Below are positions 13,320 to 49,007 of a DNA stretch of 51,683 nucleotides, one piece after another. The position numbers and the translations under genes are program-made. The notes beneath the pieces are model-generated. The model saw only the letters and a program-made list of their open reading frames with translations. It searched no databases and was not told the origin of the DNA. Numbering within the stretch: position 1 is the first letter of the stretch; every line of letters begins with the position of its first letter. This stretch comes from a virus. Taxonomy: Duplodnaviria > Caudoviricetes. The DNA lies in IMG/VR virus record IMGVR_UViG_3300047552_000616, positions 1 through 51,683 of that record; one strand, written 5' to 3'.

Positions 13320-13811
13320 TTAAGGCTGCCTTCCCAATAGTAAATATTCTTCGGGAACGAGTAATACTCCTTCCATCCATGGCAATACTACAAGAAGCAT
13401 TCCAAGTAATATATTAGGAGTATGGATATTATATTGTTCTAGCTGTTTAATTACGAGTGGTTGATATATCATTAAATTAGAACCCATTAAAGCATTAAAA
13501 TGTTCTATTCCCATTAAGATAGTAAATTTTCTAGAGGTACAAAAATTATACTCACGATGAAGATGAGAGGAAAGCTTTATAATTTCAGTATAAAGTTTTT
13601 CTTTATCTATTGTAACAGTTTCCGTGATAGTAAGTTCTTCTTGCTTCTTCTTTACCCATCCGATTTGCTGCAAGAATTTAATATATGAGTTAGCTCTCTT
13701 GCGAATAGTTTTCTTAACCGGCCTAAGTCGCTTAAGAATAAATTCTTCTTTTGAGTCTATCCACTTAGAAATTCTTTTACGATTATTTACAATAAATTTT
13801 TGGTATCTCAT
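13320..13811 (-). CDS. Hypothetical AT-rich basic protein
   Basis: 163 aa; coupled to the pol C-fragment stop; visibly AT-rich. Confidence 0.6.
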   Translation of the reverse strand: MRYQKFIVNNRKRISKWIDSKEEFILKRLRPVKKTIRKRANSYIKFLQQIGWVKKKQEELTITETVTIDKEKLYTEIIKLSSHLHREYNFCTSRKFTILMGIEHFNALMGSNLMIYQPLVIKQLEQYNIHTPNILLGMLLVVLPWMEGVLLVPEEYLLLGRQP

Positions 13812-14836
13812 ATTTCCTTCATCCCTTCCGGATTTACTTTTTCATCGTAGTCATCCCAATTATATCCTGCACATACCTCAACCTTCATCTTAAATTCTTC
13901 TCCCTGCTCATTCTTTAAATCCTGCTCTAACATTGTTCTTAATGTGTTAGCCATTTCTTCAACGTCTGCTGTATTGTCTGGCACCTGCGTTAATATCGAA
14001 TCATGTTCATTGTTCAATATGTGCCAAATACTAGCTCGCATCGTAGTCTCAATATACTGCTGCAATCCATAGAATGCTATATTCGTTATTGTCCCTACAG
14101 TAGATTGAGGTATCCATGCTGTCATATCTCGCATGGCCTTTTCTGTTATGGGGCCATAGTAGTAGCATGGATGCCCGAAAAGATTTCTAAAAGCTAGCTT
14201 ATGTTTTAGCTTGTAGTCTATCGAATTAGCGTGCCACTCCCTTATTTCGGGAAAGAGCGAATGATATCCATCTAGAAAGGCATCAGCTTCTTTCCGGGAA
14301 ATGACCACCTTCCCTTCGGACTCTCGTAAGATGTCCTGCTGAAAAGTAGGTCCACGCATACGGTAATTTGCTGATAGCCCAGTCTTTTTGCCGATGAAAT
14401 ATCTGATCGGACTTGCTTTAATAGCTTTTTCCAATCCGGCCCATGCGTGAAATTGTTTGATTTCTCTGACAGGCAATGATAAGATTGTGTCGATGTGATG
14501 ATGACCTTCTTCTTTCCAATAGTTCCTGAAGATTTTTGCTGTGACATAAGTATGTAGTTTAATTTTGTTAAGAAATAACTGACGTAAATTACCGTCCCGA
14601 CATAACCAAGCAACAATTAAGGCTTCTGCTCCCGCTTGATCTGCTTTGACAAATTTATACCCCTGATCGGGAATGACTAATCGCTTCTCTTCTTGCGATA
14701 AGTTCTGGCAATTCCGTCCCCATATACCAAGGAGCTTGGAAGATCGGTTACGGAAGCTATTAGCTAGTCCGACTTTCCATGCTCCAGTGAGGCGGGATGG
14801 TGATAGGTTAGGGAGCATTGGAATAATCCCATTCAA
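13808..14836 (-). CDS. polA: DNA polymerase family A, polymerase (palm/fingers) fragment; likely ATG at 14818
   Basis: RSSK..GRNCQN, motif A DQAGAEALIVA, motif B KKTGLSANY, PQST, motif C NEHDS. Confidence 0.9.
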   Translation of the reverse strand: MNGIIPMLPNLSPSRLTGAWKVGLANSFRNRSSKLLGIWGRNCQNLSQEEKRLVIPDQGYKFVKADQAGAEALIVAWLCRDGNLRQLFLNKIKLHTYVTAKIFRNYWKEEGHHHIDTILSLPVREIKQFHAWAGLEKAIKASPIRYFIGKKTGLSANYRMRGPTFQQDILRESEGKVVISRKEADAFLDGYHSLFPEIREWHANSIDYKLKHKLAFRNLFGHPCYYYGPITEKAMRDMTAWIPQSTVGTITNIAFYGLQQYIETTMRASIWHILNNEHDSILTQVPDNTADVEEMANTLRTMLEQDLKNEQGEEFKMKVEVCAGYNWDDYDEKVNPEGMKEI

Positions 14837-15224
14837 AAGGATACCTAGATTTCAATGTCTCATACAACTCCATCAATACAGCATATAGTCTTGGGGCATT
14901 ATTCTTCATCATACTTCCATCTTCCCATTCACCTGTTCCGGGAATAAGGACATGATAACGGGGTTCGGGATATGCTGAAGCTATCTTTGTGAATTCATCT
15001 ATAATAATACCCTCATATGTCCGGAGTTCCATATCCCAAAAGAAATCCTGTTGCTTATTGCATGGTGCTCTCTTGGTTGTTATGGGAAAGCAATTGGGAT
15101 ACTTATTCCATGTGCATCGCCAATGATCTTCTCCTGCTCGCTTTAAGTTATCACCATATATGAAGCTTATTTCAGGATGCTCCATTACATACAGTGGAGT
15201 TATTTTATAGGGTATCTTAGTCAT
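14808..15224 (-). CDS. Conserved phage protein (DUF7831 / macro-like family) between polA fragments
   Basis: FIYGDNLKRAG...PNCFPITTKRAP...PGTG pattern. Confidence 0.5.
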   Translation of the reverse strand: MTKIPYKITPLYVMEHPEISFIYGDNLKRAGEDHWRCTWNKYPNCFPITTKRAPCNKQQDFFWDMELRTYEGIIIDEFTKIASAYPEPRYHVLIPGTGEWEDGSMMKNNAPRLYAVLMELYETLKSRYPFEWDYSNAP

Positions 15225-15556
15225 AGAACCTCAGTCAAGATTCGCCATGATTTTAGTGTGTTATTATCAAACACAAGTTCAACTGGAGTATCTTTAAGCT
15301 CCTCCACTGAATTCACTTTTGCTTCATCAAGAAACTTTGAGATTAGTCTAACCAATTCATCATGGAATTTACTCCGCTCTTTTTCTGTCCATACAGCATG
15401 CTTAGATTTCTTTATCTTAGTTGGGTCCCATGTAGTGAATCTCCAACCAACACCTCCAAAGGGACCGCCAAATTCAACATGAAGTCCAAGTCTTCCCTCG
15501 CATACACCAAACTTAATGCTTGTGATTTTTCCTAGTTTAATGTCGTTGTCATTCAT
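15221..15556 (-). CDS. Hypothetical protein between polA fragments
   Basis: ATG at 15556 overlaps the stop of the pol N-fragment (ATGAATGA); 111 aa. Confidence 0.65.
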   Translation of the reverse strand: MNDNDIKLGKITSIKFGVCEGRLGLHVEFGGPFGGVGWRFTTWDPTKIKKSKHAVWTEKERSKFHDELVRLISKFLDEAKVNSVEELKDTPVELVFDNNTLKSWRILTEVL

Positions 15557-17111
15557 AACAATTCCATCTAATAAACTGTAATCCACTTGTTTGTTTTTGT
15601 ATCCGCCTAAATTCAATGGTGAGATCCAATATGGGATTGAATGCTTCCTTACTCTTCAACCATAGCTTCATCTTATATAGCTGACTTTTACCAAGGCTAG
15701 CCCGATGTGTTTTCTCGCTTCGGGCCATTACCTTATATCCCATCAGTTCATGGAAGTAATGAATGCATTGCTTATTGCTGGATGGTAGTAGCTCAAAGCC
15801 AGCTAGGATCTTAATCATCCGCATTATCTGCATCATTTTTCTGTCGTTCTCTTGGATCTTAGCTGTGGCCTTATCTTCATCAAAACAGATGCCCATTAAA
15901 CTATTCACTAGATAAGCATATAGTGCATTGTTAGTGCATTCTATGCTGGACTTCAACCCAGCATCCTTACTCGCCAGTCCATCCAGCCCTTCCTTTACCA
16001 ACATCATCCCATAGATATCCTTGCCATTATATTCCCACAGCTTACGCTCATCCCCGGCATTATGTGGTGCAAAGATACCCTCATCTTTATGGTAAGGTAA
16101 CCATGTTAAGTGACTCATTGCATGGCCAAGAGATTTCTCCACACCAACAAATGCCTTATGGTGGGATATCATCGTATCATATATCTTTCGGCCAAAAGGA
16201 ATCTTGTAGTAGTGTGCCAAGATAAATAAATCAAACATACTATTGTGCACCACTACTTCGTTATCCCTCATTCCCGCAGCCAATGCTCTAACCAAAAGTA
16301 TAGTCCTTTCGCCATAAGCCAGAGAACCATCATAGCGAAATATAGGCACAACAAACACAGAAGGAAATCCAAAGCTGAATCCGATACACCGAAGATTCGG
16401 CCTCTCTTCCATATCCGTTTCGATATCCAAGTATAGTGTTTTGTTTTTCGTGGTAATGAGCGTTTCATAAGCTTCCTCAAATGTGGGATAGATAACATAT
16501 TGAGGTGTGGGATGACATGGAACTTTACCGTTAAAGTTTAGTAGGATATCCTTAACCCGTCGCGTGTCTGTGGTCAGCCAAAAGCGATAATTAGATCGGC
16601 GGGTTTTACCATGATCTTTGATGGACTCATCTTCGGCATCAGCATCCTCTTCTCCATCTTCATTGTATCGTGGTGTAAGTTCACCGTCCGGGATAGCTTC
16701 GGCGGGATTTAGGTAGGGATTCTTATCCTTCTCCCAGTCCTGCATATCGAATGCATCCACGGGTAAGTAGCTTGCAATCGCCGGGATATCTGGATATTCC
16801 TTTAGCGATAACGGAGTGCCACGATGTTGATTGAGACTTAGCGCGGGATCGACTAGAGCTTTAAGGGCATCCGCACCAAGGATGAGGATAGATTTAGTGC
16901 CATCACGGAGTCTCTTGCCTCCGGCCCGATATGCCTCCAAATCCATCACGTCACATTGGAGGTTATTTATTTCGGGACGGAGGCAGTCTTCCCTAAACCA
17001 CAATCCTGCATTGCCAGCTAGGAGTTGCTTGGCTTGCATATCAAATCGCGATGGATTCGATAGGATTATTGTTAATCCTTTGTAGGAGAATTTAGGGGGA
17101 TGGTGGAACAT
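15549..17111 (-). CDS. polA: DNA polymerase A N-terminal fragment: UDG-like domain, 3'-5' exonuclease and thumb
   Basis: UDG-like (NPSRFD..LAGNAG..ILILG..RGT..YLP); ExoI LDIET, ExoII HNSMFD, ExoIII YNGKD; GICFD, SSNKQ, IEFRRIQK. Confidence 0.85.
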   Translation of the reverse strand: MFHHPPKFSYKGLTIILSNPSRFDMQAKQLLAGNAGLWFREDCLRPEINNLQCDVMDLEAYRAGGKRLRDGTKSILILGADALKALVDPALSLNQHRGTPLSLKEYPDIPAIASYLPVDAFDMQDWEKDKNPYLNPAEAIPDGELTPRYNEDGEEDADAEDESIKDHGKTRRSNYRFWLTTDTRRVKDILLNFNGKVPCHPTPQYVIYPTFEEAYETLITTKNKTLYLDIETDMEERPNLRCIGFSFGFPSVFVVPIFRYDGSLAYGERTILLVRALAAGMRDNEVVVHNSMFDLFILAHYYKIPFGRKIYDTMISHHKAFVGVEKSLGHAMSHLTWLPYHKDEGIFAPHNAGDERKLWEYNGKDIYGMMLVKEGLDGLASKDAGLKSSIECTNNALYAYLVNSLMGICFDEDKATAKIQENDRKMMQIMRMIKILAGFELLPSSNKQCIHYFHELMGYKVMARSEKTHRASLGKSQLYKMKLWLKSKEAFNPILDLTIEFRRIQKQTSGLQFIRWNCYE

Positions 17112-25747: not shown

Positions 25748-27022
25748 TTATTTGTTTTGATCCAACTCATCATCTTCAATAAATAATCCCGCCGCTTCTT
25801 CCTCTTCTTCATCCTCTTCCTCATCTCCATCCGCACCTTTCAATAACCTTATGCTTCCCGCCATACTCTCACTGTTAGCATGAGATTGCCCGGCTGCTTC
25901 TAGGATAACATCTTCCCAGCTTTCCTTCTGCCTAACTACTTTCTTTAGGCACTTAAGTTTCATGCTCACTATCGCGGCGACGTGTTCTTCTACTGTGCCC
26001 TTATAGAACAATACAACTTGTGACGTATCACTAAGGCTAGTTAATCGCGGTGCTCGGCCTAAGCCTTGGACTAATTCAATGGCAGAGTATGTTGTGTTGA
26101 GAAATGTTACTCGTTGTCTAGTGGATACCAATGGGATATCTTCTTCATATGCATATCCCGATTCATCTTTCCTTCGGACTTTGTGCTTGGTTAGTTCGTC
26201 AGTGTGATGTAAACTTAGTCCTACTCCACCCGACTTAAATGTGTAGAAACAATACCTGCTTCGGCCCGACTGGAATCTATCTATCTCTTCCTGTCGTTGA
26301 GTCCGGGATTGTGACCCTAAGTTATACCCAGACATATCCCCTAGTCCAGCATCATCCGATTTAAGTTGTTGCTTAATCTTCTTGATTGTTGCTTTCGGGA
26401 TATCATCAAACTTCCCGGACATCATTAATCCAAACACTCGAATAAACTCTGCATTATCAATTCGTTCTGTTTGATTATAGGCTGCATTTCCTCCCCATAT
26501 CAGGGAGATTTCATCTCGCTTTACTTTATATTTCTCTATCAAACATTTAACTGCACGTGCTATTCCTTGTTTGAAGCAGAAGACTGCCACAGGACTTTGA
26601 TCATACTTTGTCCTCGCATCATACATAGCTTCAGCTATTGCTTCAGCTTTACAATTCTCTGCTGCTTCCTTGAACTTCTGCATCTCAGCGAATAGCATGT
26701 AGCCCCTTACCCTGCCATCCAGCTTATCTGCCTTGCTACAAAATTCCATCCACCTTTCCCATGCCGAAGCATAATGCTTACGTTCCCATTCCGTTCTAAA
26801 CTCTAGCAACTGAACACCATTACGAGCATGGAATTGTGGACGTAGATTCTTGATGTCAACTACATGGGGCATGATCTTCTTCATTAGCCTCTCCATAGCT
26901 GATGGAGAATTTTCATCAGGATCTTGCGGGAACGCTATAGCTTTAGCGAATCCAGCCCAGTTTTGGTTAGTGACTTTGCGTTTGGGTGTAGTTATGTTCA
27001 TATCTATATCTATTCTTTCCAT
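25748..27022 (-). CDS. SF2 (SNF2/Strawberry-notch-like) helicase, C-terminal RecA2 fragment
   Basis: AVFCF, IWGG, RQEEIDRFQSG, SGGVGLSLH, QGLGRAPR, GTVEE; acidic tail. Confidence 0.85.
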   Translation of the reverse strand: MERIDIDMNITTPKRKVTNQNWAGFAKAIAFPQDPDENSPSAMERLMKKIMPHVVDIKNLRPQFHARNGVQLLEFRTEWERKHYASAWERWMEFCSKADKLDGRVRGYMLFAEMQKFKEAAENCKAEAIAEAMYDARTKYDQSPVAVFCFKQGIARAVKCLIEKYKVKRDEISLIWGGNAAYNQTERIDNAEFIRVFGLMMSGKFDDIPKATIKKIKQQLKSDDAGLGDMSGYNLGSQSRTQRQEEIDRFQSGRSRYCFYTFKSGGVGLSLHHTDELTKHKVRRKDESGYAYEEDIPLVSTRQRVTFLNTTYSAIELVQGLGRAPRLTSLSDTSQVVLFYKGTVEEHVAAIVSMKLKCLKKVVRQKESWEDVILEAAGQSHANSESMAGSIRLLKGADGDEEEDEEEEEAAGLFIEDDELDQNK

Positions 27023-27333
27023 TTACCTAGTGTCTTTAAGAATGCTTCGGCTCGTTGGCGGGAGGTGGCATTGATGGTTCTGTCGAGAATGAAAGGCTCA
27101 TTTGGTCTTAGTGTCTCCATCAAGACGTGATTGATGCTTACGCGAATGGAGCCTGGTTGAGACATGATCGCCTCGTGCATGGCATTGAGATCTGCGCAGT
27201 AGTTGGGAACATAGGACCAAACGTCGCCCTCGCAATCTGGTTTGTATCCTTCTGGACCATTAACTCTCACAGGATCGATGTCATGCCACCCACAGCACTC
27301 CGCAATCGCGATATTGATTTCGGTGTCGGTCAT
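27010..27333 (-). CDS. Phage hypothetical (ABA-sandwich-like) between helicase fragments
   Basis: INIAIAE..GW...VPNYCADLNAMHEA...ATSRQRAEAFL. Confidence 0.6.
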   Translation of the reverse strand: MTDTEINIAIAECCGWHDIDPVRVNGPEGYKPDCEGDVWSYVPNYCADLNAMHEAIMSQPGSIRVSINHVLMETLRPNEPFILDRTINATSRQRAEAFLKTLGKWKE

Positions 27334-27707
27334 ACATTCACACTGGCATAAAAGTTATCAATTGCTTTCTGTGTTGATTCGAGCCTCTGGTATTCTGGAA
27401 TCTCTTTTGAGAACTCCACTTCTAATTCAACAAGTGCATTGCATAGATCGCAAGCGATGTTCTTCCATGTTGTGGTGTCTGGCACTTGCATAAGTGGAGG
27501 ACTATCCTTGAAGTCCCGTAACCGTTCCCCAAGAATGTTAGAATACTGAACCATGATTTCATGTTGTCGCTTGAGTAAAATCTTGTGCCGATCAGACACC
27601 CCGAAGAGCAAGCGTCCAGAGATGAAGTCATACAGGCGGGCAATTTTGGAATCCAGTTCCTGCTTTTCCGTTGCTACCCGTTCTTCTACATTTTCAGATA
27701 TTTTCAT
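27330..27707 (-). CDS. crAss001_48-like coiled-coil protein between helicase fragments
   Basis: RVATEKQELDSKIARLYDFI...LLKRQHEIMVQYSNILGERL. Confidence 0.6.
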   Translation of the reverse strand: MKISENVEERVATEKQELDSKIARLYDFISGRLLFGVSDRHKILLKRQHEIMVQYSNILGERLRDFKDSPPLMQVPDTTTWKNIACDLCNALVELEVEFSKEIPEYQRLESTQKAIDNFYASVNV

Positions 27708-27710
27708 ATG

Positions 27711-28064
27711 TTACTTGATTTGTTTTATTTGTTGTTGAGAGATAAGAATTAGAATAATGATTACCAAAACAATCTGAACCAAATTAAATGGTTCTTTTTG
27801 AAGACCTGAAAGCCATCCCAGAACAACCAGCAGTAAAACAATGGTTATCATGGTTCCATTGCAAATGTCAGCAGCATCCGTCATCCCCTGCTTCCATGCG
27901 TCGAGTTGGATTTGTTTGACAAATTCCATTAAGTTCTCTGCGCTATGCTCTGATTCATAGGAGAATGTTAGTGATGATAGACTTGTAGCTTTCTTTTCTT
28001 TGGTGTATTGAAAGTCAGGTATAACTGTATCTTCATTCATTACCCACTCTTCTGCTGTTTTCAT
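27711..28064 (-). CDS. Hypothetical protein with C-terminal TM hairpin between helicase fragments
   Basis: MKTAEEW...QLDAWKQG followed by two hydrophobic segments. Confidence 0.55.
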   Translation of the reverse strand: MKTAEEWVMNEDTVIPDFQYTKEKKATSLSSLTFSYESEHSAENLMEFVKQIQLDAWKQGMTDAADICNGTMITIVLLLVVLGWLSGLQKEPFNLVQIVLVIIILILISQQQIKQIK

Positions 28065-28071
28065 ATCTTAT

Positions 28072-29058
28072 TTATTCTTGCTTATAGCTAGCCACTTCTT
28101 CAACATTCATCTCTACCCCACACCCAACACTAACAACCTTAGCTTCACTAACTTTAGTGAATGGTGTTGCGCTGGCGAATACGAATCTTAACAAAGGATG
28201 TCCTATGTCACATGCTGCCTGGAATACTTTGCTTTGCATACTCTTCTCATTCTTTACAGCCTGACATTCATCTAGGATAAACAATACAGGATGGAATAAC
28301 TTCCATTTGATTTCATCTTCCTCCTGCCCATATCTAATTACTGTCTTCCAATCAATATACATCTCCCCAAAGCTAGCCCGGAGTTGATCGTAGTTGGTTA
28401 GCAAGACATCTCGTTTCATATCTAGTCCGAACCAATTAGTTAGCACTCTTCTAGTTTGTTCCACGATACTAGCTTTTGTCACGTAGAATACACTATATGG
28501 GCATAAGTGTTTGCCTTTGATGACTCCCGACTCTATGCTATCACTAATGAACTGACCCAATACGAATGTCTTACCTGTGCCTACACCTGCCGGAATTAGT
28601 GCGCCACGTAGGTTATCTATCCACAATCTAGTGAATAGATTTCTTGCTGCTTCTCGCTGTGGTTTGTAGAGAAACAATCCCGGCTTAGCTTTAGGGGATT
28701 TGTGTAGCTTCAGCTTAGTCGTTGCGTTATCTTCGGGGAACTTATCGCCACATGTAGTAGAGAATACTGTTTCGTAACTAGAGTCCGGGAAGCCTACAGT
28801 ATCTCCGGGGAAATGCAGGTTAGCTAGTTCGGGAGGGAGTTTGGATCTATCAAGCCTAGGGGATTGGGATTCTTCTTTCGCCATCGCACTACTCGTCGCA
28901 GGCAAGCTAGCTTTTGTTGTAGTAATGAGGGCTGTTGAACTTTTGCTTTCTTCTTGTTTGTTTTTGTTTTCATTTTTATTGCCTGGTAACCTTAAGTTAT
29001 TCCAATTGATTGGCGTAGGTTTAGGTAGAATTGTTTTCATTTCATATATTCTTCTCAA
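28072..29058 (-). CDS. SF2 helicase, N-terminal ATPase (RecA1) fragment (likely start 29040)
   Basis: Q-motif LYKPQ, Walker A GVGTGKT, TNYDQLR, Walker B ILDECQ, motif III ASATPF. Confidence 0.85.
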   Translation of the reverse strand: MRRIYEMKTILPKPTPINWNNLRLPGNKNENKNKQEESKSSTALITTTKASLPATSSAMAKEESQSPRLDRSKLPPELANLHFPGDTVGFPDSSYETVFSTTCGDKFPEDNATTKLKLHKSPKAKPGLFLYKPQREAARNLFTRLWIDNLRGALIPAGVGTGKTFVLGQFISDSIESGVIKGKHLCPYSVFYVTKASIVEQTRRVLTNWFGLDMKRDVLLTNYDQLRASFGEMYIDWKTVIRYGQEEDEIKWKLFHPVLFILDECQAVKNEKSMQSKVFQAACDIGHPLLRFVFASATPFTKVSEAKVVSVGCGVEMNVEEVASYKQE

Positions 29059-33729: not shown

Positions 33730-33918
33730 CTAAATATCTTTACTATTAAGTATAACTGTTGCTATACTATCTCGAAAATCTATAAAAGCATCTGTAGACA
33801 AAGACCAATATATGGTAGCATTGATCTCTTTCTTATCATACTTTTCTTTGATAGTATTTTGTAGCTTAATGTAGTTAGCTTTGTGCTTTCGGATTTTATT
33901 TATTGTTGTTTTGTTCAT
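33730..33918 (-). CDS. Hypothetical protein
   Basis: MNKTTINKIRKH..., ATG at 33918. Confidence 0.55.
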   Translation of the reverse strand: MNKTTINKIRKHKANYIKLQNTIKEKYDKKEINATIYWSLSTDAFIDFRDSIATVILNSKDI

Positions 33919-33998
33919 AAGAAAGGGGAAAGGGCAAGCTACTGTCACGTTAGTTGCCCCTTTTGTTGTTATTTAAATGGCCTAAGTGCTAAGTGCTA

Positions 33999-34014
33999 AG
34001 CACATAGAATGCCA
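33999..34014 (-). promoter_or_regulatory. Candidate sigma54 promoter
   Basis: TGGCATT-CTAT-GTGCT, GG-N10-GC, intergenic, upstream of 33918. Confidence 0.55.
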
Positions 34015-34377
34015 TCGCCCTAGTTTATGAAAGCCAGAATCCGGTATTATATTCAGGTTACTGGTAAGACTGCGCATTGAGGCAGTATTCTAGCTTTAGC
34101 TAAGGACTCATCCAGTCTAACACTTGCGCAAGGTTAAGTGAGCTTACTTTATAATTAGTGCTCTACTTCTCAAAAACCTACCGCATTACTTGTTCCCGGA
34201 TGTTTCGCGATGGCAATAGTTCAGCCATTACAGTGATTATTAAGTTATCATCTTTCATTTAGCTATGTCGGACATAGCATCTAGTTATTCGGCAGCCTAT
34301 CTATTGCTAGATAACTTTCCTTTAGCTAGTATGTCAAAGGAACTAAAGTGGTGGAAATTATTGTTAGCTTTAGCTTA

Positions 34378-34622: not shown

Positions 34623-35051
34623 TTACTTCAGCCCATCAATCCACTTCACGAATTTCTCTGCCAAGTGCCATTGCGTATTGACTACGCTAATGTTGTGCTT
34701 CAATGCCTCGTTGGCGTAAGCTACGGCCCTTGCGATTGCGATGCTGAACGTTTCGGCACAACCTTTGACTTTGCAGGACTCTCCCAAAGTCAGTTGGCCA
34801 TTATCATTGACTTTCTTGCCCAGCTTAACACTGACTTCAGCGTCACGCATATAGGCGCCAAAGTCAGAACCGAATTGCCGTGCAACTTTCTCGGCCTTGT
34901 CGGAAGTCAGCTTGAAAATACGCTGACTGTCCTGATACAGTTCCTTCATGGCCAAGCTATATCGGCCATTGCCAAAACTGATTTCAGCTTGCTTCGCGTT
35001 GGATTGCTGGTTATTGGATTGCGTTGCGTTCTCAACTGTAGGTGTAGACAT
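34623..35051 (-). CDS. First early gene, hypothetical (142 aa)
   Basis: ATG at 35051 (MSTPTVEN); GC-richer than neighbours; has its own promoter and terminator. Confidence 0.7.
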   Translation of the reverse strand: MSTPTVENATQSNNQQSNAKQAEISFGNGRYSLAMKELYQDSQRIFKLTSDKAEKVARQFGSDFGAYMRDAEVSVKLGKKVNDNGQLTLGESCKVKGCAETFSIAIARAVAYANEALKHNISVVNTQWHLAEKFVKWIDGLK

Positions 35052-35198
35052 AACTCTTAGCTTGTGTTTTACTGTTTCCTCATGCACCGTTCGCTTCTGG
35101 CGAACATTCAAGCGCACAAGGCAAATCCAGAACTGCCAACGCATTCCCGGTTCACTGCTTCGCGACGGCAGATTTCTCCGCCCGCCCGCATGACCAGC

Positions 35199-35266
35199 TT
35201 GTCAAAGATCTGAGGAGAACCTAGCACATCTCTCCATCTTGGCAACATTTATTTTACATTTTTTTT
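35199..35266 (-). promoter_or_regulatory. rRNA-like sigma70 early promoter with UP element and boxA-like site
   Basis: A-tract UP element, TTGCCA-16 bp-TAGGTT (with upstream TG), then GATCTTTGACAA at 35210-35199. Confidence 0.55.
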
Positions 35267-35391
35267 CTAATCATGACAACCATATCCTTTAACTTCCTCT
35301 TATATCATCTATTCTACTTTTCACCCTACTTTCCCATTACTTCCCCTTGTATAACTACCGTTTGCAAGTTTCGGAAAATATGCCCCTATGG

Positions 35392-35455
35392 CTTATATAA
35401 TATATATATATAATATACATATATATATACTATAGTATATCTAATTATTAATTAA
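35392..35455. other. AT-only tract in the divergent intergenic region (possible origin or terminus element)
   Basis: ttatataatatatatataatatacatatatatatactatagtatatctaattattaattaa. Confidence 0.45.
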
Positions 35456-35790
35456 ATGCGTATAACTTATTTCAGTAGCCAGACAACCAGAGGGAGCAAA
35501 ATTAGCCTAGATTCAGAATGTTAGTATACTCCGGGATTCTTTACCCTACCAAGCAATCTTAGCCCATACTATACCTTTTGCTCCATTTAGGAAATTAGCT
35601 AAATGGCTAAATGTCCTTGCCCACTACCAAAGCCATCCCGAACTATCTAGACGGCAACCATAGCCACCCATCCCCCCAGAAACGAAATCCGAATCCTATA
35701 CATGCACTCTCTTTTCCCCACCCTAAAATATCTCCATGCGCAGAAGGGTAAGATAAGAGGAGGTAAGTGGAGGGGGCAGAAGATATTAAA

Positions 35791-35807
35791 TGGCATGGGG
35801 GGTGCTA
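35791..35807 (+). promoter_or_regulatory. sigma54 promoter for packaging/head operon
   Basis: TGGCATG-GGGG-GTGCTA, GG-N10-GC, upstream of terS. Confidence 0.7.
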
Positions 35808-35874
35808 GAGGATAGGGGATTATGAATACTGTTGATGACATACTAGAAAATAACGATTTGAAGAGATTAGTCTA

Positions 35875-36378
35875 ATGACAGCCGCGAATACCCAAGTGGT
35901 TAAGGCATACGAAGACTGTGGGATGCTTCCATCCGAAATTGCGGAGACGCTCGGATGGGAGGAATCTGCGATCAAAGCTATCCTTGCAATCCATAGCAGG
36001 AAATACCGTAGTGATACCAAAGATCTGGGGGGTCCCCTGGAAGTATCCTCTAATGCTATACAGAAAGTAGATCGCGAGGGGGAAAGCGGGGCAGAAGATG
36101 TAGAAATAACAGACCCCGAATACCAAGAGATAATCTCTGCCTACAAACAACTAGCCCTATATAGTGAAGTAGACAGCGTTCGCGAAAGAGCGCTCCGGAA
36201 CCTTATTGATGAAAAGAAGGGTCGAAAACGAATCCTCAGCCCAAGCAAGGTTGGAAGCCTGAATATTGCACAGATTAATGTTTACATAAAACAGGCGCGG
36301 GAGGAGCTTCGGGGAATGATTGAAGGGATAAATCCCATTAACATAGAAGCTGAAGTTAAGCAGTTGAAACAGGGATGA
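35875..36378 (+). CDS. terS: Putative terminase small subunit
   Basis: N-terminal HTH (GMLPSEIAETLGWEESAIKAIL); immediately upstream of terL. Confidence 0.6.
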   Translation: MTAANTQVVKAYEDCGMLPSEIAETLGWEESAIKAILAIHSRKYRSDTKDLGGPLEVSSNAIQKVDREGESGAEDVEITDPEYQEIISAYKQLALYSEVDSVRERALRNLIDEKKGRKRILSPSKVGSLNIAQINVYIKQAREELRGMIEGINPINIEAEVKQLKQG

Positions 36379-38345
36379 TGAAATCTGGTATCCACAAATT
36401 TTCTAGTCCAGAAGAACTTCAGAAGTTCCTTAATCCCATATTAAGGAAAGCAGCAGGGAGGGTAGCTAATGATCCCATATCAGTATCAACAGCAGATCCA
36501 AAAGATAATCTTACTAAATCCCAAAATAATGGAAAAGGGAAAGAGGGAATTGACCTTACTAAACAAGGTAAGGAAATTACGTATGATGTCAAGAGGGAAG
36601 CTAATTCCAATGACATATACGTTCCCGACCTATCCTGTCCCGATTCAGATGGCCAAATCTATCGCGGAGACTTCAAGGTAGAAGATAACACGACAGAAGC
36701 CGAAGTTCGCGAACGCCTAAAGCCTAGAAATCTAGGAGAGTATGAACCACTTGAATTTGCTAATCCCGCAGAAATGTTCATATTCTTTGAGCGAATGGCT
36801 CAGGGACAACGTAAGCCATATTCCTGGCAAATAGAAACATTGTTGTTTCTAGGCAAACAATACTTCAAAGAAAATCCCCTTAGATTCTTCCTGCAAGCAT
36901 GTAATGGTAGTGGAAAGGACTCCTATATCATAGCATTATTTGCTGTATGGTTTATCGCAAGCAAAATCCGGAGTAGATTTATCGGGACATCTAGCTCATA
37001 TACACAGCTCGAAGGTCAAACAGAGAACTATATCCGGACCTATGCAGCACAAATTAATGCAGCAATTGGTGAGAATATCTTCCTAATCAAAAAACAACAC
37101 ATTGTATGCACTAAAACTGGTAGTGAAATTGTATTGTTCAGCACCAATGAACCTGGCCGGGCCGAGGGGTGGCATCCCCATCCGGACTATCCTGATGCAG
37201 AAATGTGCATATGTATCAATGAAGCTAAAACTATTCCCGATGAAATATTCTTGCACCTAAAGAAATGCACAGGCTATAACATATGGTTAGAGGTATCTAG
37301 TCCCGGAGGCACTAGTGGGCATTTCTACAATGAATGCCGGGTAGCAAGACAGTGGAGCGAGGGGTATGATGGAAGAAGTAAATTTAAGCGGAAAGTAACC
37401 TATGCTGATTGTCCACACATAAGTAAACAGGAAGTAAAGGATGCTATAGATGAACATGGAATTGGTAACTTCTGGGTAAGAGCAACCTATTTCGCGGAAT
37501 TCACAGACTTAGATAGTGAAGTAGTAATTGGGGGAATCCTGATAGATAATTGTGTAGAGAATCCCCCACCCATAATAGAAGAATGTCCCGAGCTTCCCTT
37601 AAGGGCGGGGGTCGATTTTAGCGCGGGAGGGGATGAAGATACCATATATGTATTCCGGGGTAACTATCTCTGGAAATCTAAAGCATTCCGGGAAGCAGAC
37701 ACTGTGATAGCAGCGGAGATAGTAATTCAATTCCTATCCTCATGTGGATTTAAGCCGGGGGAAGCTGAGAATGTAAGTATAGATGATGGTAATGTGGGAC
37801 ACATGCTAGTAGATACAATGCAACATAGGGGGTGGTCGGTATCCCGCGTTGCATTTGGTGGCAAGGCAATCAATTCCCTGATGTATGGAAATAAGGGCAC
37901 AGAAATGTGGTTCAATGTTAAGAACCTATTTGAGCAGGGATTACTCCACATACCAAAACAAGTCGCGGCAAGTGACAGGAAACTTCTCGATCAACTTAAG
38001 GGCAGGAAATACAAGAGATCCAATGCTAGCGGTAAACTCATATTACTAAGCAAAAAAGAGCAGAAAGAAGATGGATACCTTAGCCCGGACCGCGCTGATG
38101 GATTTGTTCTAGGTAACCATAGACTTCGTTGGAAAGATCTAGAATCCTTCTTCCGGACTAAACTTGAAGAAACTAAAGTCAAAGGAGTATCCCCTGAAGC
38201 ACTGCCGGGATACTATGATGATAACTTTGTATACAATCGCTTTGAGCAACATCCCCGTGGAACAAAACCTGCTTTGGTTGGAGATCAATATCGGATAGGA
38301 AAGAAACAGATTTTTAGTCACATTAAACGAATGATTGGAATATAA
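36375..38345 (+). CDS. terL: Terminase large subunit
   Basis: YSWQ, Walker A ACNGSGKD, Walker B variant CINEA, SSPG, RuvC-like GVDFSAGGDED, SPDRADG. Confidence 0.9.
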   Translation: MMKSGIHKFSSPEELQKFLNPILRKAAGRVANDPISVSTADPKDNLTKSQNNGKGKEGIDLTKQGKEITYDVKREANSNDIYVPDLSCPDSDGQIYRGDFKVEDNTTEAEVRERLKPRNLGEYEPLEFANPAEMFIFFERMAQGQRKPYSWQIETLLFLGKQYFKENPLRFFLQACNGSGKDSYIIALFAVWFIASKIRSRFIGTSSSYTQLEGQTENYIRTYAAQINAAIGENIFLIKKQHIVCTKTGSEIVLFSTNEPGRAEGWHPHPDYPDAEMCICINEAKTIPDEIFLHLKKCTGYNIWLEVSSPGGTSGHFYNECRVARQWSEGYDGRSKFKRKVTYADCPHISKQEVKDAIDEHGIGNFWVRATYFAEFTDLDSEVVIGGILIDNCVENPPPIIEECPELPLRAGVDFSAGGDEDTIYVFRGNYLWKSKAFREADTVIAAEIVIQFLSSCGFKPGEAENVSIDDGNVGHMLVDTMQHRGWSVSRVAFGGKAINSLMYGNKGTEMWFNVKNLFEQGLLHIPKQVAASDRKLLDQLKGRKYKRSNASGKLILLSKKEQKEDGYLSPDRADGFVLGNHRLRWKDLESFFRTKLEETKVKGVSPEALPGYYDDNFVYNRFEQHPRGTKPALVGDQYRIGKKQIFSHIKRMIGI

Positions 38346-41848: not shown

Positions 41849-41865
41849 TGGCATGTTTATTGCTA
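41849..41865 (+). promoter_or_regulatory. sigma54 promoter of major capsid gene
   Basis: TGGCATG-TTTA-TTGCTA directly after the terminator. Confidence 0.9.
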
Positions 41866-48991: not shown

Positions 48992-49007
48992 TGGCATGTG
49001 AAATGCT
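48992..49007 (+). promoter_or_regulatory. sigma54 promoter for tail operon
   Basis: TGGCATG-TGAA-ATGCT, GG-N10-GC, intergenic, before ATG 49024. Confidence 0.7.

Follow-up and report, generated by a model that had tools for sequence, protein, structure and literature searches.

The 51,683-nucleotide stretch of DNA analysed here, referred to throughout as the window, is IMG/VR virus record IMGVR_UViG_3300047552_000616 (Duplodnaviria; Caudoviricetes), a complete virus of 51,683 bp with terminal repeats. Gene arms on the plus and minus strands diverge from a 730-bp gap at 35145-35874, which is therefore the divergent control region of this phage. On the minus strand of this region lies a boxA-like word, GATCTTTGACAA, followed by an untranslated leader, a small gene that we call gene X and an intrinsic terminator, and it is the nature and role of this word that we address. 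A preliminary description of the sequence had read an A-rich tract, TTGCCA, a 16-nt spacer, TAGGTT and GATCTTTGACAA as a mimic of the ribosomal RNA operon (rrn) P1 promoter with its boxA; each of these motifs is present on the minus strand where it had been placed. The elements of the cassette, in the order in which they would be transcribed, are as follows.

35279-35251, minus strand: alternative sigma70-like site TTGTCA-17-TAAAAT, a consensus match only (10/12), with a predicted start at ~35244
35266-35246, minus strand: A-rich tract upstream of TTGCCA, a proposed UP element whose function is predicted only
35245-35218, minus strand: candidate sigma70-type promoter TTGCCA-16-TAGGTT (8/12), with a predicted start at ~35211, directly at boxA
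35245-35240 and 35223-35218, minus strand: the -35 and -10 hexamers of that candidate, TTGCCA (5/6) and TAGGTT (3/6), separated by the 16-nt spacer
35236-35224, minus strand: apparent sigma54 promoter relic, with TGG at 35236-35234, GC at 35225-35224 and GTGCT 13 nt before boxA, like the -12 element of relatives
35210-35199, minus strand: boxA-like word GATCTTTGACAA, the sole match to GNTCTTTRANA in the window
35211 and the first eight bases of GATCTTTGACAA, minus strand: boxA core, the preceding A included, corresponding to the 8-nt core recognised by NusB/NusE
35198-35052, minus strand: untranslated leader between boxA and the gene X start
35182-35167, minus strand: hairpin GGCGGA-GAAA-TCTGCC, with 6 pairs and a GAAA loop, 16 nt after boxA and present in the minimum-free-energy and centroid folds
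35051-34623, minus strand: gene X, 142 amino acids, its start ATG at 35051 set by homologues
~34608-34557, minus strand: strong intrinsic terminator downstream of gene X, with a GC-rich stem of 12 bp ahead of TTATTCTTTTT
34536-34378, minus strand: open reading frame 2 (ORF2), 52 amino acids, very basic and conserved, starting ~20 nt after the T run of the terminator

Counts within the window alone are at chance level, and the significance of the boxA-like word comes instead from its conservation in relatives. Single-protein scans of viral contigs found no relatives and alignment-based scans were needed: a terminase alignment search gave 80 viral-contig loci (≤43% identical), and a narrower gene X alignment search gave 18 metagenome loci. 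In the 80 viral-contig loci and 18 genome-contig loci, the boxA-like pattern clusters 0.7-3.7 kb upstream of the terminase gene on the opposite strand, and each non-coding match precedes a homologue of gene X, which in this phage comes first on the leftward arm. Among 26 distinct cassettes (duplicates and two truncated loci excluded), 19 carry G-N-TCTTTG in sense orientation in the 450 nt that precede gene X, and an antisense copy is absent from all 26 windows; with 273 matches in 2.33 Mb as the background (0.05 per 450 nt), this corresponds to P = 1.5e-19. Near variants (GYTCTTTTCAA, GTTCTTTACCA) are found in three further cassettes. The independent metagenome subset, retrieved only once the word pattern was fixed, has the word in 8 of 15 cassettes (P = 2e-7). 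Boxa-like words that follow the gene X terminator in relatives L012 and L107, and the related TTTTGACAA in L116, were excluded from the count because they contain TTGACA and may be -35 boxes. When 16 word-carrying leaders are aligned, only the G, TCTTT and G columns are invariant; as these leaders were preselected as carrying the word, the weight rests on the count of 19 in 26 rather than on the invariance of the columns. The word lies 159 nt before the ATG of gene X in this phage and 109-339 nt before it in relatives. From this comparison we conclude that the boxA-like word is a real element, kept by related uncultured phages at the predicted start of the gene X transcript.

The conserved bases are those expected of a target for Nus factors. 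According to PMC3177189, NusB-NusE contacts 8 nt of BoxA, the last being a U at the NusB/NusE interface that is followed by G in the Aquifex RNA, and the invariant bases of the relatives' word coincide with these 8 nt. The gene X proteins are mutually 17-54% identical, and an invariant core beside such divergence would be more readily explained by a strongly conserved partner from the host than by one specific to the phage. Within the word, GAUCUUUGA is an exact 9-mer of the Bacillus subtilis rrn-leader consensus, given as AUGAUCUUUGAAA in PMC13753749.

The preliminary description had proposed a comparison with the rrn leader of the host, and this was run on stand-in genomes: 10 genomes with 14 rrn operons from Verrucomicrobiota, the phylum of a Verrucomicrobiae metagenome-assembled genome with a related prophage terminase. 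In sense orientation, 7 of the 10 genomes and 9 of the 14 operons have G[TCA]TCTTTGA no more than 900 nt before the 16S gene; it has no antisense occurrence there, and the leader words, which include GTTCTTTGAAAT, GCTCTTTGAAAA and GATCTTTGAAAA, are identical to words of phage cassettes. The comparison speaks for the nature of the word in bacteria rather than for a match to the phage's own host. The boxA part of the preliminary description is thus borne out more strongly than the window had indicated, through conservation across divergent relatives, correspondence to the NusB/NusE core and identity with rrn-leader words.

The word is accompanied by promoters of different types. A sigma54 motif (TGGCA-N8-GC-W) stands at most 60 nt upstream of the word in 14 of the 26 cassettes, with 12-14 nt between the C of the -12 element and the first G of the word in 11 relatives, 18 nt in one and 27 nt in two, the last two having a hairpin in between. 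A gap of 12-14 nt after the -12 element would place the word at about +2, at the predicted 5' end of the RNA. The other sigma54 sites of the same genomes have no word downstream, and the word is retained without a sigma54 motif in this phage, in L011, in L076 and in others; on these grounds the sequences indicate that the boxA word and the promoter are separate elements. The relic at 35236-35224 of this phage has 8 nt between TGG and GC where sigma54 requires 10, so that the cassette promoter lacks sigma54 spacing, and the site has the appearance of a sigma54 promoter that the loss of 2 nt has inactivated.

The candidate TTGCCA-16-TAGGTT overlaps this relic, and its predicted start agrees with the starts predicted from the relatives' sigma54 promoters. 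As a sigma70 site it is unremarkable: a fit of at least 8/12 starting at a given point is found at 9.4% of random positions, the promoter scan did not list the site because 8/12 lay below its threshold, and promoter-like sites over the whole window (31, compared with 41.8 in shuffles) are not enriched. The stronger match, TTGTCA-17-TAAAAT, overlaps the proposed UP element, and a start there would lengthen the RNA by ~34 nt 5' of the TTGCCA-derived start. An rrn P1 promoter combines an A/T-rich UP element with a GC-rich discriminator; the stretch between -10 and start in this phage, CTCCTCA, is unlike the latter. The merit of the rrn P1-like promoter that had been described is its position, with a predicted start that falls at boxA; its fit is at chance level, and TTGCCA-16-TAGGTT is a weakly supported candidate for a promoter of that type.

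Downstream of the word, the untranslated leader of this phage contains the GAAA-loop hairpin listed above. In L003 and L102 a hairpin separates the promoter from boxA, and L105 has one 5' of its boxA. A search of Rfam assigned no part of the window to a family at gathering score, and around the site relaxing the limit to E ≤10 brought up noise alone. Separately, a palindromic block of CACAAATTTGTG type recurs mid-leader in L011, L105, L110, L074 and L108, reading CACAATTTTGTG in L074, CACAAATTTTGTG in L110 and CATAAATTTATG in L105, where the two halves have changed in step; the block could form an RNA hairpin or serve as a protein operator.

Gene X belongs to a family with 336 cluster representatives in an exhaustive search, of 107-198 amino acids among the 150 best listed. 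Its AlphaFold2 model (mean predicted local distance difference test score, 86.5) consists of two helices, a beta hairpin and then further helices. No Pfam, PHROG or PDB-sequence match was found for it, nor a fold match among solved or viral predicted structures, weak HU-like hits being not significant. All 11 viral-contig cassettes have a hairpin and T run 3' of gene X, and inspection by eye finds the same in each of the 13 metagenome cassettes whose sequence continues beyond the gene; in two of these the T run is weak. ORF2, beyond the terminator, is characterized by the motif QEFxRLLxF ... GRYISIRG and has homologues in L020, L106, L101, L025, L016, L076 and L012, although searches of protein families returned no family match. 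The gene X stop precedes its start by 63-99 nt in this phage, L020 and L101 and by a comparable stretch in L106, the spacing being larger in four other relatives. Because ORF2 adjoins the terminator and leaves no room for a promoter of its own in this phage, its layout implies that some read-through of the gene X terminator is required for its expression.

Taking together the observed sequence, conservation, position and architecture, we infer Nus binding, the start site and an effect on elongation, and propose with moderate confidence that 35210-35199 is a conserved rrn-type BoxA at or near the 5' end of the gene X transcript, where it would nucleate Nus-modified elongation. The cassette, which this phage family keeps at the head of the leftward (replication) arm, would then read promoter, BoxA, untranslated leader, gene X and intrinsic terminator. 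As the G-N-UCUUU core emerges in the nascent RNA, host NusB and S10 (NusE) would bind it and nucleate a Nus-modified elongation complex, which may help RNA polymerase to get through the long untranslated leader and to the end of gene X; some of the polymerase would probably pass the terminator into ORF2 and beyond. The promoter ahead of BoxA would be interchangeable: sigma54-type in most relatives, and in this phage probably either the weak TTGCCA-16-TAGGTT or the stronger TTGTCA-17-TAAAAT.

Several observations weigh against a Nus-binding BoxA. GNTCTTTRANA is present in the window once, where 1.32 matches are expected, and the Escherichia coli boxA consensus has 4 matches with at most two mismatches, where 5.6 are expected. 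The word misses the gamma-proteobacterial boxA consensus GYTCTTTAANA (PMC5725501) at two positions. It is absent from 4 of the 26 cassettes, while among bacteria 3 of the 10 sampled Verrucomicrobiota genomes have no such word within 900 nt before the 16S gene, nor has the 569 nt available of one Azospirillaceae rrn leader a boxA-like word. At the level of RNA, the whole leader folds no better than its shuffles (z -0.85), RNAalifold assigned 0 pairs to the 16 leaders, whose poor alignment leaves structure still possible, and no conserved boxB or boxC partner emerged from the same alignment. With G at 26% and C at 22%, the leaders lack the C-richness of Rho loading sites, which weakens the simplest role, protection of the leader from Rho. 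Finally, as set out in PMC5725501, Nus factors without N counter Rho-dependent termination, and intrinsic read-through in lambda needs N; by themselves, Nus factors are not known to overcome intrinsic terminators.

The alternative that survives best, which we regard as possible yet clearly less probable than a Nus-binding BoxA, is that the conserved word serves as an RNA or DNA signal with no link to Nus factors, acting in 5'-end stability, in translation control or as an autoregulatory operator of a phage protein. The predicted placement of the word at the extreme 5' end of the RNA would be consistent with such a signal, being unlike the boxA sites generally known; so would the appearance of gene X as a discrete, self-contained and probably abundant unit, and the palindromic leader blocks, which hint at further regulatory sites. 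A phage-specific partner, however, should co-vary with its site, and the core is invariant at 17-54% protein identity. The word also equals real rrn-leader words, and it persists alongside sigma54 and non-sigma54 promoters alike.

The order of elements brings to mind the lambda arrangement PL-nutL-N-tL1, and raises a further alternative in which BoxA and the leader, together with gene X or ORF2, would form a lambda-N-like module that renders polymerase resistant to the gene X and gene Y terminators (gene Y is described below), so that it reaches the replication operon containing the gene for a bacterial enhancer-binding protein (bEBP). The parallel extends over the promoter, boxA, small gene, intrinsic terminator and promoterless genes; cassette and terminator are conserved, ORF2 stands right behind the terminator in this phage, L020, L101 and L106, and a GAAA-loop hairpin follows boxA by 16 nt in this phage. 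The dependence of intrinsic-terminator read-through on N in lambda (PMC5725501) likewise favours a protein component. Set against this, gene X is confidently modelled yet resembles neither N nor Q nor any other protein of solved structure and lacks an arginine-rich motif, and the post-boxA hairpin is known from this phage. In relative G008, moreover, a sigma54 site follows directly after the second (gene Y) terminator, making read-through unneeded there. We consider this module unlikely, and equally doubtful the stronger form of the idea, that a host rrn-type BoxA on a sigma54-dependent (here sigma70-like) transcript is one half of a lambda-N-like switch of which gene X or ORF2 would be the protein half. 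Were that so, expression of the cassette would license polymerase to pass hairpin terminators into the replication and bEBP operon, and the system would represent a new antiterminator family and the first link between Nus antitermination and enhancer-dependent sigma54 transcription.

The preliminary description went further in another direction, proposing that host boxA antitermination starts a sigma54 cascade. The elements on which that proposal bears are these.

35791-35806, plus strand: sigma54-type motif TGGCATGGGGGGTGCT, at the head of the rightward operon of terminase and structural genes
34014-33999, minus strand: sigma54-type motif TGGCATTCTATGTGCT, upstream of an ORF at 33948-33730
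32687-32672, minus strand: sigma54-type motif TGGCATGCTTTTTGCT, upstream of gene Y
32559-31999, minus strand: gene Y, 186 amino acids, with a weak PHROG match to 'major head protein' (E = 2.4e-4)
31961-31912, minus strand: second intrinsic terminator, formed by a hairpin with T run downstream of gene Y
25416-24541, minus strand: bEBP gene, 291 amino acids (PF00158, E = 3.5e-54), with an AAA+ sigma54-interaction domain, Walker A motif and GSFTGA loop and no DNA-binding domain (no helix-turn-helix, HTH)
41849-41864 and 48992-49007, plus strand, and 24102-24087, minus strand: further intergenic sigma54-type motifs, co-oriented with the next gene

The layout in that description is confirmed: the bEBP gene lies 9.8 kb downstream of boxA, both terminators (~34608-34557 and 31961-31912) are hairpins with T runs, and two sigma54-type motifs, those at 34014-33999 and 32687-32672, lie between them. 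The window has six intergenic, co-oriented sigma54-type motifs with the consensus TGGCATG-N4-(T/G/A)TGCT, and TGGCA-N8-GCW occurs at 12 sites against 2.2 in shuffles. Strict sigma54 sites in the relatives' loci number 42 in 1.3 Mb, where <1 is expected by a rough estimate rather than by shuffling. The motif at 35791 has no substitution over 35791-35811 in a relative contig of ~7% divergence that has many on both flanks; the contigs of this relative span 35666-36400 and two short stretches within 33916-34069, the boxA site lying outside them. All five relatives tested encode a bEBP of ~290-315 amino acids (one is cut by the contig end); its gene shares the strand of the cassette and lies 10-12 kb farther downstream, in the replication operon and with no gap before it. 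Control by sigma54 therefore seems, from these sequences, to be a family trait, with nearly the whole programme run via host sigma54, and with sigma54 promoters in front of the bEBP gene, it is plausible that the bEBP acts on these promoters to raise expression of its own operon in positive feedback. As an observation apart, gene Y with its sigma54 motif and terminator makes up a self-contained cassette. Three of the five relatives (G007, G009 and G008) have a gene of 179-209 amino acids with a sigma54 motif before it and a flagged terminator after it.

In the full cascade, polymerase starting at an rrn-P1-like sigma70 promoter would, by host-only boxA antitermination, pass two terminators over 10 kb and so yield the first bEBP; the bEBP would then amplify itself. 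The cassette promoter is indeed the only leftward promoter of this phage that is clearly not of sigma54 type, all other intergenic, co-oriented promoter motifs found being sigma54-type; ORF2 appears to require read-through, and the sigma54 motifs upstream of the bEBP operon permit feedback. Against such a start of the cascade stand the 14 of 26 relatives' cassettes with their own sigma54 motif at most 60 nt upstream, since a sigma54-type cassette would need the bEBP first and cannot be a general entry point. Antitermination by host factors through both terminators is not supported either: both are intrinsic hairpins, a class for which suppression by Nus factors alone is not reported (PMC5725501). 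The promoter fit is at chance level, and consensus sites that are equal or better lie nearer the bEBP gene. A separate sigma70 promoter just upstream of the bEBP gene had been named as speaking against the cascade; matches such as ATGACA-16-TATTAT at 25716-25689 (10/12) do exist and carry no more weight than TTGCCA-16-TAGGTT. The cascade-starter mechanism is not supported by these comparisons, and we regard the full model as improbable. Chance resemblance without function, for which the within-window counts at chance would speak, is scarcely credible given 19 of 26 cassettes where 0.05 is expected per window, none antisense and P = 1.5e-19.

A Nus-binding BoxA in this position would differ in several respects from the systems that it resembles. 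BoxA outside rRNA operons occurs in lambdoid phages, at suhB and in some CRISPR arrays, and to our knowledge work on such elements has been confined almost entirely to E. coli and bacteria related to it. With the BoxA of rrn leaders, which recruits the NusB, NusE/S10, NusA, NusG and SuhB complex, the phage word shares the core G-Y/A-UCUUU followed by G or A, the predicted location on the transcribed strand just behind the promoter and the lack of an evident dedicated phage N-type protein. Unlike those elements, it heads a short protein-coding cassette, at the predicted very 5' end of the RNA, downstream of a sigma54 promoter in most relatives. The boxA of suhB in E. coli and Salmonella, as described in PMC5725501, is similarly located in the 5' untranslated region of a non-ribosomal unit and regulates elongation or termination, but it lies near the start codon and represses, whereas the phage word lies 109-339 nt upstream of the start codon, in leaders that are not C-rich and in a unit ending in an intrinsic terminator. 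Lambda nutL/nutR with N offers the phage setting, the order promoter, boxA, small gene, terminator and further genes, and in this phage the GAAA-loop hairpin after boxA; it differs in that no N-like protein is detected here, that the relatives' promoters are sigma54-type and that the phage family is unrelated. Activators of sigma54 that work independently of enhancers and have no DNA-binding domain include FlgR and CtcC. The phage bEBP, with 291 amino acids, AAA+ domain, GSFTGA loop and no HTH, resembles such proteins, and sigma54 motifs head most units of the phage; it is distinct in being phage-encoded, in appearing to run nearly the whole phage programme and in being combined with a boxA leader. 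In the titles and abstracts searched, no description was found of a boxA in sigma54-driven phages or of phage programmes run by a phage bEBP.

The wider genome consists of two arms.

35875 through the record end to 11665, plus strand: small HTH-like gene, large terminase gene (36375-38345) and structural genes
35144 to 11843, minus strand: small genes, two-piece helicase, bEBP, exonuclease, split family-A DNA polymerase and primase-like gene

A megablast comparison with deposited phages gave no near relative of the window, and the sequencing runs that contain its DNA are all labelled freshwater metagenomes, with no RNA run among them. Terminase relatives in genomes (n = 18, 29-38% identity) fall, in 14 of 18 cases, in records titled Verrucomicrobiota, and the nearest terminase of a cultured phage is that of an Akkermansia phage (31% identity). 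Shine-Dalgarno sequences are nearly absent at the gene starts of the window, the upstream stretches being A-rich, and for this reason Bacteroidota-type promoters were tried and rejected: the -7 box TAnnTTTG has 40 copies where 41.7 are expected, only one of them in the control region. The links to Verrucomicrobiota and Akkermansia through terminase, like the traits of the gene starts, are no more than hints as to the host.

Other peculiarities of the genome are recorded here in their own right. Between the divergent promoters, a (TA)n-rich tract at 35380-35470 could be an unwinding element or origin; G007, G009 and G008 have similar tracts downstream of the gene X cassette. The helicase at 25748-29058 (minus strand) is encoded as two ORFs of 328 and 424 amino acids with three small ORFs between them, both matching successive stretches of one PHROG helicase profile for which relatives have a single ORF of 718-777 amino acids. 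Likewise, the family-A DNA polymerase at 13808-17111 (minus strand) is split into ORFs of 520 and 342 amino acids, ~700 bp apart, the interval holding a 138-amino-acid ORF and a coding-looking 324-nt stretch. In the non-coding stretch after ORF2, TAGCTAAA has three copies within 235 nt (34095-34328, minus strand); the whole window has 8 copies, compared with 2.7 expected.

Collectively, the comparison describes a boxA word, identical to words of rrn leaders, that is fixed at the predicted transcript start across an uncultured family of freshwater and soil phages, and its short RNA and two small proteins are concrete objects for testing. If the word binds Nus factors, phages far from lambda would borrow the ribosomal antitermination machinery, such borrowing would be possible without an obvious N protein, and Nus-modified elongation could be combined with enhancer-dependent initiation.

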